Assembly: GCA_043775315.1 (NCBI GenBank) | Contig: JAYVSO010000069.1 | Span: 748 to 64,747, forward strand | Direction of reading: 5' to 3' | Source: Verrucomicrobiota bacterium | GTDB taxonomy: Bacteria; Verrucomicrobiota; Verrucomicrobiia; Limisphaerales; CANJSG01 | Length of the DNA stretch: 64,000 nt | Shown here: in pieces, positions 52,998 through 59,933 of the stretch | How the letters are laid out: each line of letters begins with the position of its first letter | How positions within the stretch are numbered: position 1 is the first letter of the stretch | Made by a program: the position numbers and the translations under genes | The notes under the pieces: model-generated | Told to the model about the DNA's origin: nothing | What the model saw: only the letters and a program-made list of their open reading frames with translations | Database searches by the model: none

Positions 52998-53675
52998 ATG
53001 CTTGACCGGCTGTCCGACGTGTTCCGGGTCGACTACCACAACTGGTGGCTCGTCGCGTTTTATCTCCTCCTTGCGGGTGGCTTCATCTACGGAGTCCTGC
53101 GGCCCCGCACCCGGACCGAGTGGCGTTCCCTCGGGCTGGCCCAGGCGTTCGTCGTCGCCCTCTACGCCGAGATGTATGGGCTGCCACTGACGATGTATGG
53201 CGTGGCCTGGCTGACCGGAAAGACGGAATTCGCCAGCGACCACTTCCACGGCCACGCGTGGGCGTATCTCCTCGGCTGGGATGAAACCGGCGCCGTTGTG
53301 CTGACCTTCGTCGGCAACGCCCTTGTCGCACTTGGCGGCCTCATCGCCCTGCTCGGCTGGCGGCAAGTGCATCGTGCGAGGGGCGGCCTCGTCCGTGACG
53401 GGCTTTATCGCCGCATCCGCCATCCCCAATACACGGGCTTCTTCCTCTTCCTCATCGGCAGCTTGGTCAACTGGCCGACGCTGCCCACGCTCGTGATGTT
53501 TCCCATCCTGCTCTGGGTCTACTGGCGGCTGGCCTTGGCGGAGGAGCGCGATGTCGCCAACGCCTTCAGCGATGACTACCAGCGCTATCGGAGGACGACC
53601 GGGATGTTCCTCCCACGGCGGAGTGCAAAACCTGGCCCGCTGGCTCAAGGGACGGTTCAAAGCCCGCAACCTTAA
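52998..53675 (+). CDS. Isoprenylcysteine carboxylmethyltransferase (Ste14-like) family membrane protein
   Basis: ALYAEMYG, GLYRRIRHPQYTG, LALAEE, Y..Y....GMFLP. Confidence 0.88.
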   Translation: MLDRLSDVFRVDYHNWWLVAFYLLLAGGFIYGVLRPRTRTEWRSLGLAQAFVVALYAEMYGLPLTMYGVAWLTGKTEFASDHFHGHAWAYLLGWDETGAVVLTFVGNALVALGGLIALLGWRQVHRARGGLVRDGLYRRIRHPQYTGFFLFLIGSLVNWPTLPTLVMFPILLWVYWRLALAEERDVANAFSDDYQRYRRTTGMFLPRRSAKPGPLAQGTVQSPQP

Positions 53676-53718
53676 GCTGGCTGAAGGACTTCCCCGTCCT
53701 CTAGTCTTACTCTCAGAA

Positions 53719-55605
53719 ATGCTGACGTTTTCCGGATTATCAAAAACTTTGGGTGGCAGAACCTTGTTTGAAGAAGCCTCGCTCTCCATCACCGAGGGTG
53801 AACGGATCGGACTGGTCGGGCCCAACGGCGCGGGCAAGACGACGCTGATCAAGATCCTCCTCGGCCAGGAATCGCCCGACGATGGCGACATCGCCGTCAT
53901 CCGCGGCACAAGGGTCGGATTCCTTCCGCAGGAGACCGCGCCGGCGGGCGATGAGACCGTCCTAGAAGTCGCCACCGGCGTCCTGCCCGGATCCGGCCAC
54001 GACGAACACCACATGGTCGACGGCCAGATGCTCGCGAAGGCCAAACGCATCCTCGCCGGCCTTTCGTTCCGCGAATCCGACTACGACCGCCCTAGCAAGG
54101 AGCTCTCCGGCGGCTGGGTCATGCGCGCCCATCTGGCCCGGCTGCTCGCCGACGAACCGGACCTGCTGATGCTCGACGAGCCGACGAACCATCTCGATCT
54201 GGAGACGCTCATCTGGTTCCAGGACTACCTCCTCTACTATCCCGGCGCGCTCATGGTCATTTCCCATGACCGCGAATTCCTCAACCGCCTCTGCACCCAC
54301 ACGGTCGAGATTCGCCGGTCCAAGCTGAACCGCTATACCGGCAACTACGATTCCTACCTCGTCCAATGCGCGGCCAACGAACAGACCGCCCTCGCCACCC
54401 AGAAGTCCCAGCAGCGCCGCATCGACCAGCTCCAGGAATTCGTCGACCGCTTCGGCGCGAAGAACACCAAGGCCACCCAGGCCCAGAGCAAGCTCAAGCA
54501 GATCGAGCGCATCCGCGAGGAGATGACCGACATCCCTGAGAACAACGGCCCCACCATGGCCATGACGTTCCCGCAGCCCCAGCGCAGCGGACAGAAGGTC
54601 ATCACGCTCGACGACATCCACTTCGCCTACGGCACCAACCGCATCTACGACGGCATAGAAACTCGGATCGAACGCGGTGAACGCATCGTGCTCGTCGGAC
54701 CGAACGGCGCCGGCAAATCCACCCTCCTCAAGCTGCTTGCCGGAGCCATCACGGCCCAAAAGGGCGCGCGCGAACTCGGCCACAACGTCCGCGTCGGCTA
54801 CTACGCCCAATACCGCCTCGACATGCTCGACGCCTCACGGACCGTCCTCGACGAGGCCCTCGACACCCCGCAACGAGTCACCGAACAGGCCGTCCGCACG
54901 ATCCTCGGCAGCTTCCTCTTCCGCGGCGACGACGTCTTCAAGAAGGTCAAGGTCCTCAGCGGCGGCGAGAAGAGCCGGCTGGCCCTCGTCAAACTCTTGC
55001 TCGATCCGCCCAACTTCCTCCTGATGGACGAGCCCACCACCCACCTGGACATGCCCAGCATCGACGCCCTTGTCGGCGCGCTGAAGCAATACCAGGGCAC
55101 GCTTGTCTTCATCAGCCACGACGTCCATTTCATCCGCGCCCTTGCCAACCAGGTCATCCACGTCCGTGGCGGCAAGCTCACCCGCTATCCCGGCGACTAC
55201 CAATACTACCTCGACAAGACCGCCCAGACCGAACGCGCCGGGCTCACCGCCGGCGACAAGGTCATCCAGCCCAGCAGCGGCCGGCGTGATGCCGCGCCCG
55301 TCCTGCCGCCGGCCGACCGCAAGGAAGCCAAGCGCCTCGAAACCGAAAACCGCGAAGCCCGCGCCAAACAGAAGCGCGAACTCCAGAGCCGCGTGAAGCA
55401 GCTCGAAGCCGAGATCCACAAGCTCGAAGCCCGGCAGAAGGCGATCATGACCGAACTGGAAAAGCCCGACAGCTACTCCAAGGGCGGCAACGCCACCGCG
55501 CTCAACCGCGAACTCGCCGAACTCCAGGACCGCCTCCCCGTCGCCACCGCCGAATGGGAAAAGACCGCCGCCGAACTCGCCCCCTTCGACGGCGAAACCG
55601 CCTGA
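53719..55605 (+). CDS. ABC-F family ATP-binding protein
   Basis: Two NBDs (GPNGAGKT/GPNGAGKS, LSGGW/LSGGE, DEPTNHLD/DEPTTHLD), no TM segment, C-terminal coiled coil. Confidence 0.95.
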   Translation: MLTFSGLSKTLGGRTLFEEASLSITEGERIGLVGPNGAGKTTLIKILLGQESPDDGDIAVIRGTRVGFLPQETAPAGDETVLEVATGVLPGSGHDEHHMVDGQMLAKAKRILAGLSFRESDYDRPSKELSGGWVMRAHLARLLADEPDLLMLDEPTNHLDLETLIWFQDYLLYYPGALMVISHDREFLNRLCTHTVEIRRSKLNRYTGNYDSYLVQCAANEQTALATQKSQQRRIDQLQEFVDRFGAKNTKATQAQSKLKQIERIREEMTDIPENNGPTMAMTFPQPQRSGQKVITLDDIHFAYGTNRIYDGIETRIERGERIVLVGPNGAGKSTLLKLLAGAITAQKGARELGHNVRVGYYAQYRLDMLDASRTVLDEALDTPQRVTEQAVRTILGSFLFRGDDVFKKVKVLSGGEKSRLALVKLLLDPPNFLLMDEPTTHLDMPSIDALVGALKQYQGTLVFISHDVHFIRALANQVIHVRGGKLTRYPGDYQYYLDKTAQTERAGLTAGDKVIQPSSGRRDAAPVLPPADRKEAKRLETENREARAKQKRELQSRVKQLEAEIHKLEARQKAIMTELEKPDSYSKGGNATALNRELAELQDRLPVATAEWEKTAAELAPFDGETA

Positions 55606-55704
55606 CCCCGGCGGAATGACGAAGCCCGAAGGCCAAAGGCCAATCAGCCTTCCAGCGCCGGAACTCCCGCCCCTGGTAGGGCGGCGGCGGCCATGCCATC
55701 CTCG

Positions 55705-55863
55705 GTAGGGCGACGCCTCCCGGCGAGCCGCCTTGTGGGCGTCTTCCGACAAGCCGGCTCCTCGCGGGAAACCGAACGTCTCCATCGACCGTCAGACTTT
55801 GCCGCCGTGGCCCTCTAGATTCTCGGAAGCGCACCGGCGGCTCGCCGGGAGGCTTCGCCCTAC
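55705..55863. repeat. REPIN (inverted GTAG-type REP doublet), left of RAYT
   Basis: GTAGGGCGACGCCTCCCGGCGAGCCGCC ... GGCGGCTCGCCGGGAGGCTTCGCCCTAC; a truncated GGTAGGGCG copy at 55675. Confidence 0.9.
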
Positions 55864-55873
55864 CAGCCGTGGC

Positions 55874-56338
55874 CTACGGTTGCCGGTCTTGTGGGCGGAA
55901 GATGTGCGGCCAGTCGGCGGCTTCGCGGCATAGGCCGCGACGGACGGGGTTGTTCAGGATGTAGCCGGTCTTTTCCTCCGCCTGCCAGTGGTCGCGGAGA
56001 CGGTGGTCAAAGAAGTCCTGCTGCCAGCGGACGCCAAGCGTCTTCGCAACGTAGCCTTTCCAGCGCGTGATCGCCGTCTTGAGCCCGGGCTCGGCGGGAA
56101 CCGAGATCAAAGCGTGCAAATGATCGGGCATGAGGAGCATGAGGCGGCAATGCCATTTAAGCTCGTCGTGGTAGAACTTGGCTGAATCGAGAACTGGTCG
56201 GGCAATGCCGGGCTGGCAGAGCTGGTCTTCGCCCCTGAGCGCGCAGTTGATGGTGATGAAGAAGAGGCTTCCTTCGGCGACCCACACCGGTGGCGCGTGG
56301 TTCAACCGGCTTCGCTTTGGCCGCTCATCGCCGGACAT
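55874..56338 (-). mobile_element. REP-associated tyrosine transposase (RAYT, HUH Y1 family)
   Basis: FFITIN, MPDHLH (HUH), WQQDFFDHRLR, YILNNPVRRGL...DWP; flanked by REP doublets. Confidence 0.93.
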
Positions 56339-56390
56339 GCTCCATGTTTCCCAGCCAGCCACCTGGTTCAAGCTCGCAGGCAGGGCCAAG

Positions 56391-56549
56391 GTAGGGCGAA
56401 GGCTCCTGCCGAGCTGCCTCGTGGCGACCTTGTGGCGTGCAGGTTCCTCGCGGGAAGTCGGGCATCTCCATCAGCCATCTCGCGTTGCCGCCGTAACCCT
56501 GCTGTTCCGAGGAAGCGCAGCGGCGGCTCGGCGGGAGCCTTCACCCTAC
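56391..56549. repeat. REPIN (inverted GTAG-type REP doublet), right of RAYT
   Basis: GTAGGGCGAAGGCTCCTGCCGAGCTGCC ... GGCGGCTCGGCGGGAGCCTTCACCCTAC; same length as left copy with shared spacer blocks. Confidence 0.9.
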
Positions 56550-56795
56550 CTCCTAAAAGCTTCGTTACGCTTCCACGCCATCTCAACGCCATGGAGGTTT
56601 GCCAGCCGGTAGCCGGGGCCCAGCGAATGGGACCTGCTCGGCCATTGAAAGCCAATCGCCTGCGGTCATTGCCGGAGCCGTATTTCGCTTCAACTCCGTG
56701 GCTGGATGAACCCAAACCCTTCTCGACAGCCGATTTCCCCCGTCTAGCGTCGTTTTGTGGCCGCACAAACCAATCCATGCTTAACCGCAAGCTGC

Positions 56796-56815
56796 GGCCG
56801 AATACAGTGGTAGGC
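56796..56815 (+). other. attI-like integron site (degenerate)
   Basis: GGCCGAAT-ACAGT-GGTAGGC mirrors attI1 geometry (L box, 5-bp spacer, GTTRRRY); ORF starts 3 nt later. Confidence 0.45.
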
Positions 56816-56817
56816 TG

Positions 56818-57225
56818 ATGGATACGCGCATCTCAACCTGGAATGTTTTGCACGATGGCGAGATTACCGCCGTTTCACAGGATGGCGACACGCTCACGAT
56901 GTTTGTGAGCATTCCATACCTGAGACGGCGACTCAGACCGCTCGGCGATAGTTTCGTCCTGACGTTGGCTGGAGTCAGGCGCGTTGAGTTTCGTGATTTC
57001 AGCGGAAGGACCAGCCATCTCCGAGAGGAACTTGAGATTGGCACACCGGAGATTCTGAGCACGGAGTCACAGTCCATGCCGGTCACGGTCGAAACGACGA
57101 TGGGACAGTTGATTCTCGACTTCGAGAGCATCCGATTCGCGTTAGACACCGGAGAGATCACTGACTACAGCACCATCGAAAGGGTTTGCGATGAGTATTG
57201 GACAGAGTGGGAGGGCACAGAATGA
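56818..57225 (+). CDS. Hypothetical protein, cassette-like ORF 1
   Basis: 135-aa acidic ORF (WNVLHDGEI), lower GC than flanks, no room for a promoter, followed by attC-like site. Confidence 0.75.
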   Translation: MDTRISTWNVLHDGEITAVSQDGDTLTMFVSIPYLRRRLRPLGDSFVLTLAGVRRVEFRDFSGRTSHLREELEIGTPEILSTESQSMPVTVETTMGQLILDFESIRFALDTGEITDYSTIERVCDEYWTEWEGTE

Positions 57226-57238
57226 GAAACCCGCATCG

Positions 57239-57331
57239 GCCTAAACATGCTCTCCAGCGAACTGCGGCGGGCCGTCGCGGTTGCCATCGGCGCGTCTCGT
57301 GGCCGCCGTCGCTGAGCTTGGGTCGGTAGGC
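57239..57331 (+). other. attC-like recombination site (degenerate)
   Basis: GCCTAAA...CTCCAGCGAAC ... GTCGCTGAG...GGTAGGC: imperfect hairpin with R''/L''/L'/R' boxes and unpaired extra C and A on the left arm. Confidence 0.75.
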
Positions 57332-57345
57332 GAATTCAAATCACC

Positions 57346-57555
57346 ATGAAAAAGCGATTCACGATTGGAGGAGCGATAGCCGGTCTGCTCTATGGTGTCG
57401 GCAGCATGGTTTTTGTATTCATCAAAGCGCCGGGGCATCCCGGTCTCTTCGAGTTGATTTTGCAGGCTATCGTCGTCGGAGTCCTTGTCGCCGTTGGCGC
57501 GTTGCTCGGGTTGCTGGTGGGTTGGCTGGTCAGCTTGTGCGTTCGGAAGAAATGA
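57346..57555 (+). CDS. Small two-TM membrane protein, cassette-like ORF 2
   Basis: 69 aa, two hydrophobic helices, ATG 15 nt after the attC-like core. Confidence 0.6.
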   Translation: MKKRFTIGGAIAGLLYGVGSMVFVFIKAPGHPGLFELILQAIVVGVLVAVGALLGLLVGWLVSLCVRKK

Positions 57556-57725
57556 CACCCGTCCTAGATTACAGGATCACCGGGGTATCAGGTTGGAACA
57601 AGTTTCATGTTCAGGGTTTGGCCTCATCGCAAGGTTGGCCGCTGCTTCACGCCCTTCGTAGACACACTTCACCGTTTCGGATTTTCGCCGTCGCCCTTCC
57701 TCATCGCCCGCGCTAGAACCCCCGC

Positions 57726-59933
57726 GTGTCCGACGCCTCCGCCATCCATGACCTCCTGACTCCGCTCAAGGAGGTCTTCGGCTACACGGCGTTCCGGCCG
57801 TTGCAGGAGGACATCATCCGCGATTCGCTCGCGGGCAAGGACGTCTTCGCCCTGCTGCCGACCGGCGGCGGCAAGTCGCTCTGCTTCCAGCTTCCAGCAC
57901 TCGTCCGGCCCGGCCTCACCGTCGTCATCTCGCCGCTCATCGCTTTGATGAAGGACCAGGTGGACTCGCTCAAGGCCAGCGGCGTGGCTGCGACGTTCCT
58001 CAACTCCTCGTTGTCCGACGCGGAACGCAGCGAACGTTGGCGCGGGTTGAACCGCGGCGAGTTCAAGCTCCTCTATCTCGCGCCCGAGCGCCTCATGCTC
58101 GGCTCGATGATCGACGACCTGAACCGCTGGGGCGTGGCCTGCGTGGCCGTCGACGAGGCCCATTGCATCAGCGAATGGGGCCACGATTTCCGACCGGAAT
58201 ACCGCCAGATCCGCGAGCTGCGTTCGAAGATCACCGGCGTGCCGTTCATGGCCCTGACCGCCACCGCCACCGGCCGCGTGCGCGAGGACATCGTTTCCCA
58301 ACTCCAGTTCGTGGATCCGTCGGTCTACGTCGCCAGCTTCAACCGCCCCAACCTCGGTTACCGTGTCACGCCCAAGTCGGCGGGCTACCAGCAGGTGCTG
58401 GAGTTCATCCGCGAACGGAAGAAGGACTGCGGGATCATCTATTGCGCCAGCCGCGCCGGCACGGAGTCCCTCGCGAACAAGCTCGCCGAGGACAACATCC
58501 GCGCCGTGCCGTATCACGCCGGACTCTCGAAGGAGGACCGCAGCAGGCATCAGGAACAGTTTCTCCGCGACGAAGCGCGCGTCGTCTGCGCGACGGTCGC
58601 GTTCGGCATGGGCATCAACAAACCCAACGTCCGCTACGTCATCCACTACGACCTCCCGAAGAACATCGAGGGCTACTACCAGGAGACGGGACGCGCCGGA
58701 CGCGACGGGCTTCCCGCAGATTGCCTCCTGCTCTTCAGCCCAGGCGACGTGGTGAAACAACAGCGCTTCATCGACGAGAAGCCCGATCCGGAAGAGCAGC
58801 GCATCGCCCGCGAGCAGCTCCAGACGATGGTCCACTACGCGGAATGCGCCGAGTGCCGCCGCGTCATGCTGCTCGACTATTTCGGCGAGGAGTTTCCCGA
58901 GGCGAACTGCGGCGGCTGCGACAACTGCCTTGCCCCGCGCCAGAGCTTCGACGGCACCATCGCCGCGCAGAAGCTTCTCAGCTGCATCGTCCGCATCCGG
59001 CAGAAGAGCGGATACGGATGCGGACTGAACCACGTCATCGCCGTGCTCACCGGAGGCGAAACAGAGCGCGTGCGTCAATCGGGCCACCACGAACTCAGCA
59101 CCTACGGCATCGGCAAGGAACACACGCGCAACGAATGGGGCACCATCGGCCGCGAGTTGATGCGCCTCGGACTGGTCGGCCAAAGCGCGGGACAATTCCC
59201 CACCCTGGAGATCACGCACGAAGGCGTCGCCGCGCTGAAGGACCGACGGAAGATCACGCTGACCCGACCGATGGCCGCGGCGACATCCCGCTCCGACAAG
59301 GCCGGCGAAATCACCTGCGACGAACTGCTCTTCGAAAAACTCCGCCGTCTCCGCAAGGAGCTGGCCGATGCGGCCGGTGTGCCGCCCTACATCGTCTTCG
59401 GCGACACCTCCCTCCGCCTCATGGCCAGGCTCTATCCACAGACGGAGGACGACTTCCGCCGCATCTCCGGCGTGGGCGAAACGAAGCTCAAGGCCTACGG
59501 CGCGCAGTTCATCGCCGAGGTGGAGGCGCATCTCCGCGTCCAGCCGAAGCAGCTCTTCTCCGACGAATTCCAGGAAGTCGCCGCTCCGGTCCGCGCAACC
59601 AAATCACGCGGTGAACTCCTGACCGATACGGTGCGCGATTCGCTCCGATCCTTCCGCAGCGGACTCGATGTCGCCGGCGTGGCGCGCGCGCGCGGCATCA
59701 CGGAAGGCACCGTCTCGCAGCACCTCGCCTCCGCCATCGAAGCGGGTGAAGAACTCGACCCCTCGCGGCTCTTCACCACCGAGCAGGCCGCCGAGATGCG
59801 CGCCGCCTTCGACAAGGCCGGCTGGCAGACGCTCAGCGGGGCCCATTCCGTCCTCGGAGGCCGGATCGACTACGCGACGCTCCGGCTCTTCCGGGCTTTG
59901 GAGGCCAAGTCAGGAAGCATTGCGCCAAGTTGA
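57726..59933 (+). CDS. recQ: ATP-dependent DNA helicase RecQ
   Basis: PTGGGKSLCFQ, VDEAHCISEWGHDFRPEY, QETGRAGRDG, Zn/RQC, HRDC and C-terminal HTH. Confidence 0.97.
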   Translation: MSDASAIHDLLTPLKEVFGYTAFRPLQEDIIRDSLAGKDVFALLPTGGGKSLCFQLPALVRPGLTVVISPLIALMKDQVDSLKASGVAATFLNSSLSDAERSERWRGLNRGEFKLLYLAPERLMLGSMIDDLNRWGVACVAVDEAHCISEWGHDFRPEYRQIRELRSKITGVPFMALTATATGRVREDIVSQLQFVDPSVYVASFNRPNLGYRVTPKSAGYQQVLEFIRERKKDCGIIYCASRAGTESLANKLAEDNIRAVPYHAGLSKEDRSRHQEQFLRDEARVVCATVAFGMGINKPNVRYVIHYDLPKNIEGYYQETGRAGRDGLPADCLLLFSPGDVVKQQRFIDEKPDPEEQRIAREQLQTMVHYAECAECRRVMLLDYFGEEFPEANCGGCDNCLAPRQSFDGTIAAQKLLSCIVRIRQKSGYGCGLNHVIAVLTGGETERVRQSGHHELSTYGIGKEHTRNEWGTIGRELMRLGLVGQSAGQFPTLEITHEGVAALKDRRKITLTRPMAAATSRSDKAGEITCDELLFEKLRRLRKELADAAGVPPYIVFGDTSLRLMARLYPQTEDDFRRISGVGETKLKAYGAQFIAEVEAHLRVQPKQLFSDEFQEVAAPVRATKSRGELLTDTVRDSLRSFRSGLDVAGVARARGITEGTVSQHLASAIEAGEELDPSRLFTTEQAAEMRAAFDKAGWQTLSGAHSVLGGRIDYATLRLFRALEAKSGSIAPS

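Follow-up and report, generated by a model that had tools for sequence, protein, structure and literature searches.

Integrons are gene-capture platforms in which the tyrosine recombinase IntI acts on the bottom strand of a folded attC site and joins it to the core of an attI site, and to our knowledge the attI sites of most integrons are unknown. Clusters in which two or more attC sites lie together and intI is missing from the cluster distance have been defined as CALINs (Cury et al. 2016, bioRxiv 10.1101/030866), and loss of intI is among the origins proposed for CALINs and SALINs in that report and in a second one (Loot et al., bioRxiv 10.1101/2022.09.11.507474). The locus analysed here occupies the 2028-nt gap between an ABC-F gene and recQ in genome G000, within a stretch of 64 kb (hereafter the window), and comprises, in this order, a REPIN, a RAYT (REP-associated tyrosine transposase) gene, another REPIN, an attI-type site, a first cassette gene (ORF1), an attC site and a second cassette gene (ORF2). 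It shares with the CALINs and SALINs of the two reports the presence of cassette genes and attC sequence with no integrase nearby, the uncharacterised nature of the cassettes and the chromosomal location. It differs from them in having only one detected attC, which falls short of the two-attC rule for CALINs (Cury et al. 2016) and makes the locus SALIN-like by count. Unlike the majority of described cases, it has also kept an attI-type site, a promoter-like element and a leader ORF, so that an origin by loss of intI can be argued directly. Positions 56650-57620 probably represent an integron remnant of the CALIN/SALIN kind which has lost its intI, with a REPIN-RAYT unit as an independent neighbour; on this reading, the locus reflects decay of an ordinary kind rather than a new system of gene capture. 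The elements listed for it in the initial annotation (the RAYT, its REPINs, an attI-shaped site, two ORFs and a hairpin) were all found, at the positions detailed below.

The attI-type recombination site, GCTTAAC-CGCAAGCTGCGG-CCGAATACAGTG↓GTAGGC (56779..56815, plus strand; the arrow marks the joining position of the core), was delimited by a site-family pattern and by alignment. It includes the attI-shaped sequence GGCCGAATACAGTGGTAGGC at 56796-56815, which had already been pointed out together with the ORF right after it; the ATG of ORF1 indeed follows at 56818. Of 401 genomes searched in the order, 23 contained the pattern, with 36 matches in total, compared to five matches for the reversed-pattern control. 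At G120:C6 and G030:C251, the site belongs to complete sedentary chromosomal integrons, in which a divergent intI has its start codon approximately 75 nt upstream of it; the two integrases reach 398.8 and 369.6 bits, respectively, against TIGR02249 and contain the Pfam domains Phage_integrase and SAM_4. These integrons and the window have in common the attI family, the attC type (54-71 bits with the covariance model R1 described below) and the direction of the site with respect to the cassettes. They are distinguished from the window by their intact intI and canonical G↓TTAGGC core, whereas in the window intI is absent, the core is mutated and REPIN-RAYT-REPIN stands on the corresponding side. 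The site in the window thus heads a cassette array as an attI does, though with a mutated core triplet: the family consensus ...ATACCTG↓TTAGGC is replaced by ...ATACAGTG↓GTAGGC, a change from ...CTG↓TTAGGC to ...AGTG↓GTAGGC in which GTT became GGT and an extra base was acquired. At least one attC was detected downstream of the site at 13 of the 23 attI-type loci, and all 21 model matches were on the strand of the site. A BLAST search with the left region of the window against the attI regions of two integrons of the genus, G005:C26 and G003:C61, found no similarity; these integrons use another attI type.

Upstream of the site, a putative Pc-like promoter remnant (56723..56750, plus strand) consists of TCGACA and TAGCGT separated by 16 nt. 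It aligns with a -35/-10-like pair, T(T/G)GAC(A/C)-N16/17-TAnnnT, which other genomes have conserved upstream of their attI-type sites; a sigma-70 promoter scan of 55600-57800 called 0 sites, as the remnant does not satisfy its criteria. A putative leader ORF (MLNRKLRPNTVVG and a stop codon; 56777..56818, plus strand), recognised by comparison of stop codons and ATGs, runs across the attI-type site, and its TGA stop overlaps the ATG of ORF1 (TGATG). In relatives, the leader ORF ends at the TAG of G↓TTAGGC: in 17 of 24 other site copies, an ORF terminates at a TAG inside a near-canonical 7-nt core, and 14 of these 17 have an in-frame ATG. As this ATG is in many relatives located about 7 nt past the -10-like hexamer, with no Shine-Dalgarno sequence, the leader ORF may be leaderless in these genomes.

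The arrangement resembles ORF-11 of attI1, which was reported in 2002 and is described in a review (PMC8876359). Judged by that description, both are short ORFs lying over attI, the one of the relatives ending at a TAG that occupies positions 3-5 in the GTTRRRY core of cassette 1, and in both the first cassette has its start codon a few to some tens of bases downstream. The attI-type site has no sequence relation to attI1, and in the window the stop has moved to the TGA that overlaps the ORF1 start. An ORF-11-like putative leader ORF was found across the attI family.

The attC of the first cassette (57239..57331, plus strand) is degenerate. The initial annotation had described an attC-shaped hairpin here, to which an attC model was expected to match, and R1, a home-made covariance model of 12 sites from which the window was excluded, matched full length and exactly at this position with 48.6 bits (E 3.9e-10), compared to 15.6 bits for the next match in the 64 kb; part of this score is plain sequence similarity, since 4 of the 12 model sequences come from the attC family of this same genome. 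An nhmmer profile built leave-one-out from the other 17 copies in the genome yielded 81 bits (E 1.2e-24), the next match in the window having an E of 0.066. In the manual structure of R1, 89% of the cells are paired compared to 75.7% in shuffles (0 of 500 as high), and compensatory changes are present in 14 of 23 pairs. The R'' box in the window is GCCTAAAC, with one extra A, and R' is GGTAGGC, with GTT changed to GGT; the strict RYYYAAC and GTTRRRY boxes are thus each missed by one change, the crossover GTT included, and non-standard pairs were flagged in the R''/R' helix. Other members of the family carry canonical GCCTAAC and GTTAGGC, while in approximately half of the 18 copies changes of different kinds have removed the canonical R' box. 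In the window attC, the L''/L' stems have stayed intact, and the two extrahelical positions have expanded to 3 nt and 4 nt, compared to 1 nt each in canonical copies.

Folding of the single sequence was uninformative in this GC-rich background: the energy of the hairpin was no better than that of shuffles (z -1.17 on the plus and +0.16 on the minus strand), and single-strand folding of the hairpin and attI region gave z between -1.2 and +0.2. The arms of the window attC formed the best duplex with each other (-20.8 kcal/mol) when set against nine cross-pairs. Over 10 family copies, the self-versus-cross comparison did not reach significance, 699 of 5000 permutations being equally low; in this test, the 'type B' copies C151, C144 and C33 share only the right half of attC. 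RNAalifold found no structure in a mixed 13-copy alignment (A1) with misaligned left arms, which was replaced by a curated set (A3). A strict scanner for RYYYAAC...GTTRRRY plus fold missed the window attC; its sensitivity is low, with sites recovered in 5 of 11 positive loci. Neither the profile nor the covariance model detected a second attC in the 64-kb window.

The attI core and the attC R' box together delimit a putative first cassette of 516 nt between two core-equivalent G↓G positions (56810..57325, plus strand). Its gene, ORF1 (56818..57225, plus strand), encodes a conserved hypothetical protein of 135 aa, and ORF2 (57346..57555, plus strand), an ORF call with no attC of its own, encodes a hydrophobic one of 69 aa which reads like two membrane helices. 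The GC content of the two is 54-55% compared to 62.7% for the genome, in agreement with the lower-GC ORF past the attI-shaped site, and the second short ORF, that had been annotated. No Pfam or NCBIfam match was obtained for either. ORF1 belongs to a cassette-borne family with 305 homologues spread over many phyla (the best 120 of 305 at 62-100% identity, the top one being the window's own protein). At the homologue loci inspected (14 of the 21 returned), several had a canonical attC right past the stop codon or GTTRRRY just upstream, and one homologue sits in an array of at least five cassettes. Among 201 genomes of the order, 4 contain an ORF2 homologue, with a 78% identical copy in G005 on another contig.

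What is left of the 3' end of an element of the IS110 family, in degenerate form (57571..57616, minus strand; 46 nt) and recognised by repeat family comparison, stands behind ORF2, where the second attC, that of cassette 2, would be expected. The end repeat is about 100 nt long and present in nine copies in the genome, of which the copy on C93 encodes a C-terminus 69-90% identical, over the last approximately 49 residues, to full-length transposases with PF01548 and PF02371; Pfam gave nothing in the C93 frames. The same IS110 element follows the ORF2 homologue in G005. In the window, only the 46-nt remnant is present and no DEDD transposase (PF01548 and PF02371). Like the IS1111/IS110 elements that target attC sites or REPs (ISKpn4, ISPst6 and ISPa11; PMC11187229), the element has its 3' transposase end opposite the cassettes, and its copies recur beside attC at C93, C114, C105 and C144 and beside a REPIN at C18. 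It differs from them in that the genome holds only truncated ends of about 100 nt, shortened to 46 nt in the window.

The initial annotation noted no tyrosine recombinase near the array, and in the whole assembly no match to the integron-integrase profile TIGR02249 exceeded the cut-off of 265 bits; the best ones, at 85 bits, were on other contigs and skipped the middle of the profile. The tyrosine recombinase with the IntI-specific insertion that adjoins attI in a complete integron was not found here. With the assembly at 93.7% completeness in 171 contigs, sequence missing from it could still contain an intI. Of 121 genomes of the order, 41 have an integrase above the cut-off, as do 2 of 7 in the genus, G000 not being among them. 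A possible vestige of the start of intI, covering the first nine or so codons with no start codon left, is located at 56651..56684 (minus strand). It was identified by a weak DNA alignment, which is the best local alignment to the intI 5' regions of G120 and G030 (scores of 15 and 14, respectively, with a null mean of about 9; 1 of 300 mononucleotide shuffles as high for each target) and is collinear with the attI-type site. At the protein level, alignment of the intI N-terminus to this segment was no better than for shuffles. Around 30 N-terminal intI codons are kept beside the attI-type site in G023 and G204, and these remnants, together with the possible one in the window, point to deletion of a resident intI. 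Two further candidates were rejected as remnants: tblastn of three IntI proteins against 55600-57800 gave matches of 24-27 bits that ran through a REPIN and stop codons, and a recombinase fragment on C60 has no IntI features and adjoins an ORF read by eye as an IS91-like transposase.

The RAYT gene (55874..56389, minus strand; HUH/Y1, 171 aa) is transcribed leftwards with REPINs on both sides, as annotated. The protein scored 82.9 bits against the NCBIfam equivalog NF047646, 'REP-associated tyrosine transposase' (cut-off 80), and 19.1 bits against Pfam Y1_Tnp, under the cut-off of 23; the motifs DHLHAL (HUH) and GYILNNPV (Tyr) could be read in the translation. Homologues at 57-59% identity occur in four other families of the order, and because their matches begin at residue 22 or thereabouts, the true start may be an internal ATG near 56338. 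A second RAYT of G000, 44% identical, is encoded on contig C14. REPIN 1 (55704..55864) has two inverted 29-nt REP arms (GGTAGGGCGACGCCTCCCGGCGAGCCGCC) which are 97% complementary, and REPIN 2 (56390..56550), delimited by repeat search and by the alignment with G005, is 74% identical to it; in both, the inverted arms measure 29-30 nt and are 103 nt apart. According to the same alignment, REPIN 2 is orthologous to the single REPIN at this place in G005. A degenerate solo REP 5' half (GGTAGGGCGGCGGCGGC; 55675..55691, plus strand; repeat family D9) is found just past the ABC-F stop codon, and the junction CTGGTAGGGCG at this point is common to the relatives G002, G003 and G005. Allowing up to 6 mismatches, the genome contains the REP arm 110 times, and the REPIN family is dispersed in G000 as about 55-60 REPINs (61 loci when grouped with another consensus). 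A single HUH/Y1 RAYT between GTAG-headed REP doublets, with REPINs dispersed in the genome, is what is described for REPIN-RAYT systems or REPtrons such as E. coli TnpA-REP (PMC8266576), and compared to that description the unit itself shows nothing unusual, its sole peculiarity being its place beside an integron remnant. The RAYT and its two REPINs form a normal REPIN-RAYT unit, which is probably a neighbour of the remnant rather than its partner.

In G002, G003 and G005, the flanks of which are 89-96% identical, the ABC-F/recQ gap is approximately 870-990 nt, less than half of that in G000, and contains in each case other cassette genes with attC-family sites, along with a REP or a REPIN. 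Comparison of this interval had been proposed as a check, with relatives carrying intI and lacking the RAYT as a refuting outcome, of which one half was seen: there is no RAYT in the gap of these three close relatives, but intI was not seen there either. G005 has an orthologous attI-type site with a canonical G↓TTAGAC, and the sequences diverge exactly after that core. The G000-G005 alignment fits a gain of the RAYT in G000 and a loss in G005 equally well.

The position of the RAYT had led the initial annotation to consider that it might capture or mobilise cassettes, i.e. that it functionally replaced IntI and recognises the folded attC and attI hairpins. The gene does adjoin the platform, and the RAYT and IntI protein classes both act on folded single strands, as far as described in PMC8266576. 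Moreover, both cores in the window (GGTAGGC), as well as one more attC of the genome (C93, GGTAGAC), contain the GTAG motif that heads REPs, the 5' end of which reads GGTAGGG. However, GTAG, whose role in REPs is treated in the same source (PMC8266576), is located 5' of the hairpin in REPs and 3' of the attC hairpin (top strand) here, a mismatch in geometry, and the GGT variants look like decay, given the varied losses of the R' box across the family. No attC was found with the family profile or the covariance model in 11 RAYT-homologue loci (35.7 kb) or in the region of the paralogue in this genome; a strict scan of the homologue loci gave one match, inside a RAYT ORF, against a background of 16 per 510 kb. 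The recurrent association of close RAYT homologues with attC arrays, proposed as a test, was thus seen at 0 of 11 loci. Conversely, tblastn of the RAYT against 45 integrase or attI-type loci returned only two matches, both overlapping the window, which leaves it at none of the other loci in this set. REPINs are not enriched near attC either, since 2 of 15 attC loci in G000 have a REPIN within 1 kb compared to 0.87 expected (P 0.21). Finally, cassette content differs among G000, G002, G003 and G005, although only G000 has a RAYT at the locus, meaning that the relatives exchange cassettes without one. RAYT-driven cassette capture is therefore not supported, and a replacement of IntI by the RAYT is very improbable. 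It is somewhat less so, but still decidedly doubtful, that REPIN-RAYT units preferentially colonise integron platforms and displaced intI here, with orphan promoter-attI-cassette modules, which have an ORF-11-like and possibly leaderless leader ORF, being widespread in this order as integrase-less capture sites that are still usable and served in trans; in a bolder version, the RAYT itself may process GGTAG-type cores.

The absence of intI could also mean that the locus never held an integrase, being instead an orphan Pc-attI platform or a group of cassettes at a secondary site, served in trans by an IntI encoded elsewhere and perhaps still active at times when such an integrase comes into the cell. 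Both trans action and insertion at secondary sites (attG) are established according to the reports cited above (bioRxiv 10.1101/2022.09.11.507474 and 10.1101/030866). To the left of 20 scanned attI-type loci, no integrase ORF was present in 18 (one of which, L078, is too short to judge), 9 of these having an ordinary gene there, and the attI module is doubled in G307 (in tandem) and in G192 (3.1 kb apart). In addition, G005 and G003 encode an intact intI on contigs other than that of the locus, and the relatives differ in the cassettes that the locus contains. The intI 5' remnants of G023 and G204 and the possible one in the window nevertheless point to a resident intI that was deleted, the crossover triplet is altered in each of the two window cores and the genome has no detected intI, which makes a platform without an integrase of its own unlikely. 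That the resemblance to an integron is fortuitous, with ORF1 and ORF2 as ordinary genes and the hairpin as a terminator or another repeat, is scarcely credible. It would agree with the non-significant fold z-scores, with the lack of an Rfam match and with the one weak terminator-like site of the region, a count not above chance expectation. Chance is contradicted, however, by the covariance and profile matches, by the homology of the attI-type site to sites adjacent to intI, by the attC contexts of ORF1 homologues in other phyla and by the replacement of cassettes in relatives.

The preferred reading is accordingly the other one offered by the initial annotation, a decayed integron without intI beside an independent RAYT, which is supported by the attI homology to intI-adjacent sites, the attC model match, the cassette-borne ORF1 family and the short possible vestige of intI. 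In this decayed integron, the platform would have kept its promoter-like element, the attI-type site with the leader ORF across it, one complete cassette (ORF1 and its attC) and a second cassette gene (ORF2). When it was active, IntI would have joined the folded bottom strand of attC to the attI core at G↓TT, and the promoter and leader ORF would have driven expression of the newly inserted first cassette. A possible course of decay is that intI was lost, leaving the attI and attC cores that are now seen mutated, and that an insertion of the IS110 family took the place of the attC of ORF2 or destroyed it, with only its end remnant left behind. The REPIN-RAYT unit would fill the space once held by the body of intI; at most, the loss of that gene may have gone together with colonisation by REPINs. 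Since both cores are mutated, the attC bulges are enlarged and no intI was found in the genome, the platform is probably recombinationally dead or nearly so.

The locus provides a clear worked example of integron decay, at a spot where relatives still swap cassettes, and illustrates that a RAYT beside cassettes need not mean a new capture mechanism. It also leads to the description of a conserved attI family in an environmental bacterial order, most copies of which are without an adjacent integrase, and, as a useful by-product, of a putative leader ORF with the same build as ORF-11 in class 1 integrons. The attI family, the leader ORF and the scarcity of adjacent integrases could improve the annotation of integrons and give testable recombination sites.

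The window corresponds to positions 748–64747 of contig C69 of the source genome (G000; 4.86 Mb assembly, 171 contigs, 62.7% GC, 93.7% complete). Between the genes for an ABC-F ATPase (53551–55605) on the left and RecQ (57726–59933) on the right, both assigned by Pfam, is a decayed integron platform that lacks an integrase and carries one and a half cassettes, beside an ordinary unit of a REP-associated tyrosine transposase (RAYT) and its REPINs (pairs of inverted REP arms). From left to right, the interval holds a solo REP half (55675–55691), REPIN 1 (55704–55864), the leftward RAYT gene (55874–56389), REPIN 2 (56390–56550), a spacer of about 130 nt, a conserved ~130-nt stretch that recurs in other genomes (56683–56815), ORF1 (56818–57225), an attC hairpin (57239–57331) and ORF2 (57346–57555), followed by 170 nt to recQ. 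The GC content of the two ORFs is 54–55%. The arrangement listed in the initial annotation, a REPIN-flanked leftward RAYT followed by an attI-shaped site, a low-GC ORF1, an attC-shaped hairpin and ORF2, was borne out in all its parts.

The folding energy of the hairpin was by itself uninformative. The hairpin belongs to a repeat family with 18 copies on 15 contigs of the source genome, several with canonical GCCTAAC...GTTAGGC ends and three clustered at the end of contig C93 (spacing 440–530 nt), and a leave-one-out profile recovered the window copy with 81 bits (E = 1.2e-24; next match in the window, E = 0.066). An alignment of 12 attC sites, with the window copy left out, comprised five sites from the cassette array of one Verrucomicrobiae MAG, four from other contigs of the source genome and one each from Burkholderiales, Chthoniobacterales and deltaproteobacterial MAGs, the last three all beside ORF1 homologues. 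This alignment strongly supported the textbook attC structure, an R''/R' helix and two L''/L' helices with single extrahelical bases between them: paired cells reached 89% compared to 75.7% for shuffles, none of the 500 of which came as high, compensatory changes occurred in 14 of 23 pairs, and slid controls paired at 20–41%. The covariance model of the 12 sites, run with filters off, matched 57239–57331 on the plus strand, exactly the span that had been described as attC-shaped, with 48.6 bits (E = 3.9e-10; second-best match within the 64 kb, 15.6 bits). The hairpin is an attC, though a degenerate one, with an extra A in R'', GGTAGGC rather than GTTAGGC as R', and extrahelical positions of 3 and 4 nt rather than 1 nt each. 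No second attC was found in the 64 kb by either the covariance model or the profile.

Some copies of the repeat family, here called type B (contigs C151, C144, C33 and C114), have only the right half (L'-R') of attC in common, while their left half consists of another conserved sequence, GGCCGGGTTCCTCAACCCTTCATGGCATCTAAC, which shows no pairing to the right arm. Similar sites occur at the ABC-F/recQ locus of two close relatives (G002 and G003). These sites may be hybrid or rearranged.

The attI-type site (56779–56815; GCTTAACCGCAAGCTGCGGCCGAATACAGTGGTAGGC) has a core pattern with 36 matches, spread over 23 of 401 genomes in the order Limisphaerales, compared to five for the reversed control. 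Nearly all copies end ...ATACCTG|TTAGGC, and downstream of G|TT each locus differs. In two genomes (G120, contig C6, and G030, contig C251) the site lies divergent from intI, the start codon of which is about 75 nt upstream of it; the two proteins score 398.8 and 369.6 bits, respectively, against TIGR02249, have Phage_integrase and SAM_4 domains, and are accompanied by two attC each downstream of the site on the same strand, as detected with the covariance model. At least one attC follows the site in 13 of 23 loci, and all 21 attC matches are on the strand of the site. The site noted as attI-shaped is homologous to these integrase-associated copies and is a real attI type. Its core in the window, ...ATACAGTG|GTAGGC, has one base inserted and has lost GTT, while G005, a close relative, has at this locus an orthologous site that keeps G|TTAGAC and continues into a different gene.

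Several other arrangements of such sites were observed. The source genome has a second, more diverged promoter/attI-type copy after purL (C39:35618–36540; L024, 2619–3540), with two small ORFs of low GC downstream (89 aa, zinc-ribbon-like, and 120 aa, membrane) and a degenerate stretch resembling attC, in which the covariance model gave no match at E 0.01. Promoter-attI modules occur in tandem in G307 (two, 853 nt apart) and twice in G192 (3.1 kb apart). On G066:C183 (L065/L072), as judged by eye, an intact intI and a single GNAT-like cassette stand tail-to-tail; the cassette has an attI-type site at its head, directed at the 3' end of intI, whereas the canonical layout is divergent. The genus integron on G005:C26 (1–250; L055) has, directly upstream of intI, a stretch similar to the right half of the family attC (GCTGAGCTTGGGGTCGG...TCGTTAGGC), followed by what appears by eye to be the start of a Phd/YefM-like antitoxin cassette; the attI type there differs from that of the window.

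A leader ORF (56777–56818) runs across the attI-type site of the window, reading MLNRKLRPNTVVG, with its TGA stop overlapping the ATG of ORF1. In 17 of 24 copies from other genomes (L068–L091), the near-canonical 7-nt core holds the terminal TAG of the leader ORF; 14 of these 17 have an in-frame ATG, and the peptide ends ...LNR(K/N)LRSNTC. This is the same design as that described for ORF-11, a short ORF spanning attI1 of class 1 integrons (PMC8876359), and the leader is probably translated. At many loci the leader ATG lies about 7 nt past a TACACT-like -10 hexamer and lacks a Shine-Dalgarno sequence, on account of which the transcript may be leaderless there. Judged by sequence, TCGACA-16-TAGCGT upstream of the window site is a putative promoter, which the promoter scan did not call.

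No integrase was found in the assembly of the source genome; IntI scores above cut-off in 41 of 121 sampled genomes of the order and in two of seven of the genus. Among 20 attI-type loci whose left side was scanned for ORFs of at least 130 aa, an integrase was present in two and an ordinary gene (including lipase, amidase, PQQ propeller and DUF1501) in nine others, with no family match in the rest; one of the 20, L078, has a left flank of just 364 nt, without such an ORF. Within the broader set (L068–L091; 23 loci in 22 further genomes of the order), G023 and G204 still have the N-terminal part of intI, about 30 codons, beside the site according to tblastn with IntI, the E-values of which are inflated as the first ~37 residues of the query are translated intergenic and site region. 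Orphan attI platforms seem common in the order. In the window, local DNA alignment places the intI start regions of both G120 and G030 best on 56651–56684, a segment collinear with the site (scores of 15 and 14 compared to a null mean of about 9; one in 300 mononucleotide shuffles scored as high). The segment shows no intI signal at the protein level, and could tentatively be a vestige of the intI start.

Both ORFs are cassette genes. For ORF1, a large protein collection contains 305 homologues, the best 120 of which are 62–100% identical (the top one being the window's own protein), all hypothetical and without a Pfam domain. A scan of one genome per species yielded 21 loci in Planctomycetota, Burkholderiales, Deltaproteobacteria, Actinomycetota, Nitrospiraceae, Omnitrophota, Verrucomicrobiota and others; several of the 14 inspected have an attC whose first bases coincide with or fall inside the stop codon, or GTTRRRY immediately upstream of the gene; one homologue lies inside an array of at least five cassettes. 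ORF2 has copies in four of 201 genomes of the order, and that of G005, 78% identical, is on another contig.

Downstream of ORF2, 57571–57616 (46 nt) is a degenerate copy of a ~100-nt repeat present nine times in the source genome. A longer copy (C93, 14654–14756) codes, on the strand opposite to the cassettes, for a C-terminus with 69–90% identity to full-length proteins (about 460 aa) that carry PF01548 and PF02371, i.e. IS110-family transposases; Pfam gave nothing on the fragment itself. The repeat is the 3' end of such a transposase gene plus the IS end, with nine truncated copies (window, C93, C118, C18, C105, C59, C144, C57 and C114) and no intact one in the assembly, and the transposase stop codon lies within GCCTAAC, the complement of the GTTAGGC core. 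Copies adjoin attC on C93, C114, C105 and C144 and a REPIN on C18, and in G005 the same IS end follows the ORF2 homologue. IS1111-family elements targeting attC sites or REPs are on record (PMC11187229). The attC of the second cassette would have been struck by an IS110-family element and later eroded.

The RAYT could either be an independent neighbour of a decayed integron or, as the initial annotation also proposed, capture or mobilise cassettes. The unit itself is a standard REPIN-RAYT: the protein matches NCBIfam NF047646 (82.9 bits, cut-off 80), with readable HUH and Tyr motifs and a Pfam Y1_Tnp score below cut-off, and the 29-nt REP arm, with GGTAGGG at its 5' start, has 110 copies genome-wide, most of them in inverted pairs spaced by about 132 nt. 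The nearest homologues of the RAYT (57–59% identity) belong to four other families of the order, while the best match at genus level (43%) corresponds to a second paralogue of its own genome. That paralogue (C14:38247–38687; 44% identical to the window RAYT) is, unlike the latter, of the type present in same-genus relatives.

Folded single strands are recognised by both enzyme classes, the sole RAYT-integron connection drawn in the sections of the literature seen (PMC8266576); a full-text search that combined RAYT with integron and attC gave no report of RAYT-mediated cassette movement. The motifs are placed differently, the GGTAG of the mutated cores being 3' of the hairpin and the GTAG of REPs 5' of theirs. 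In the three relatives G002, G003 and G005 (flanks 89–96% identical), the ABC-F/recQ gap holds a REP or REPIN, different cassettes and attC-family sites; the RAYT is absent from it, and the intI looked for at this position is absent as well. Recurrent association of RAYT homologues with attC was not seen either, as 11 homologue loci (35.7 kb) and the C14 region contained no attC (profile, strict scan and covariance model) and no attI-type motif. The RAYT protein had no matches in 45 integrase/attI-type loci save two overlapping the window, and a REPIN lies within 1 kb of 2 of 15 attC loci of the source genome, compared to 0.87 expected (length-weighted intergenic null, P = 0.21). No sign was found that the RAYT belongs to the integron system, and with cassettes differing between relatives that lack it, capture or mobilisation by the RAYT is not supported.

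The conservative reading, a decayed integron that lost intI and has an independent RAYT beside it, is supported. By the published definitions (bioRxiv 10.1101/030866 and 10.1101/2022.09.11.507474), a CALIN requires a second attC, which this locus lacks, and by attC count it fits a SALIN. Unlike most such cases, it keeps an identifiable attI. The attI family, its leader ORF and its many integrase-less copies are worth a further look.
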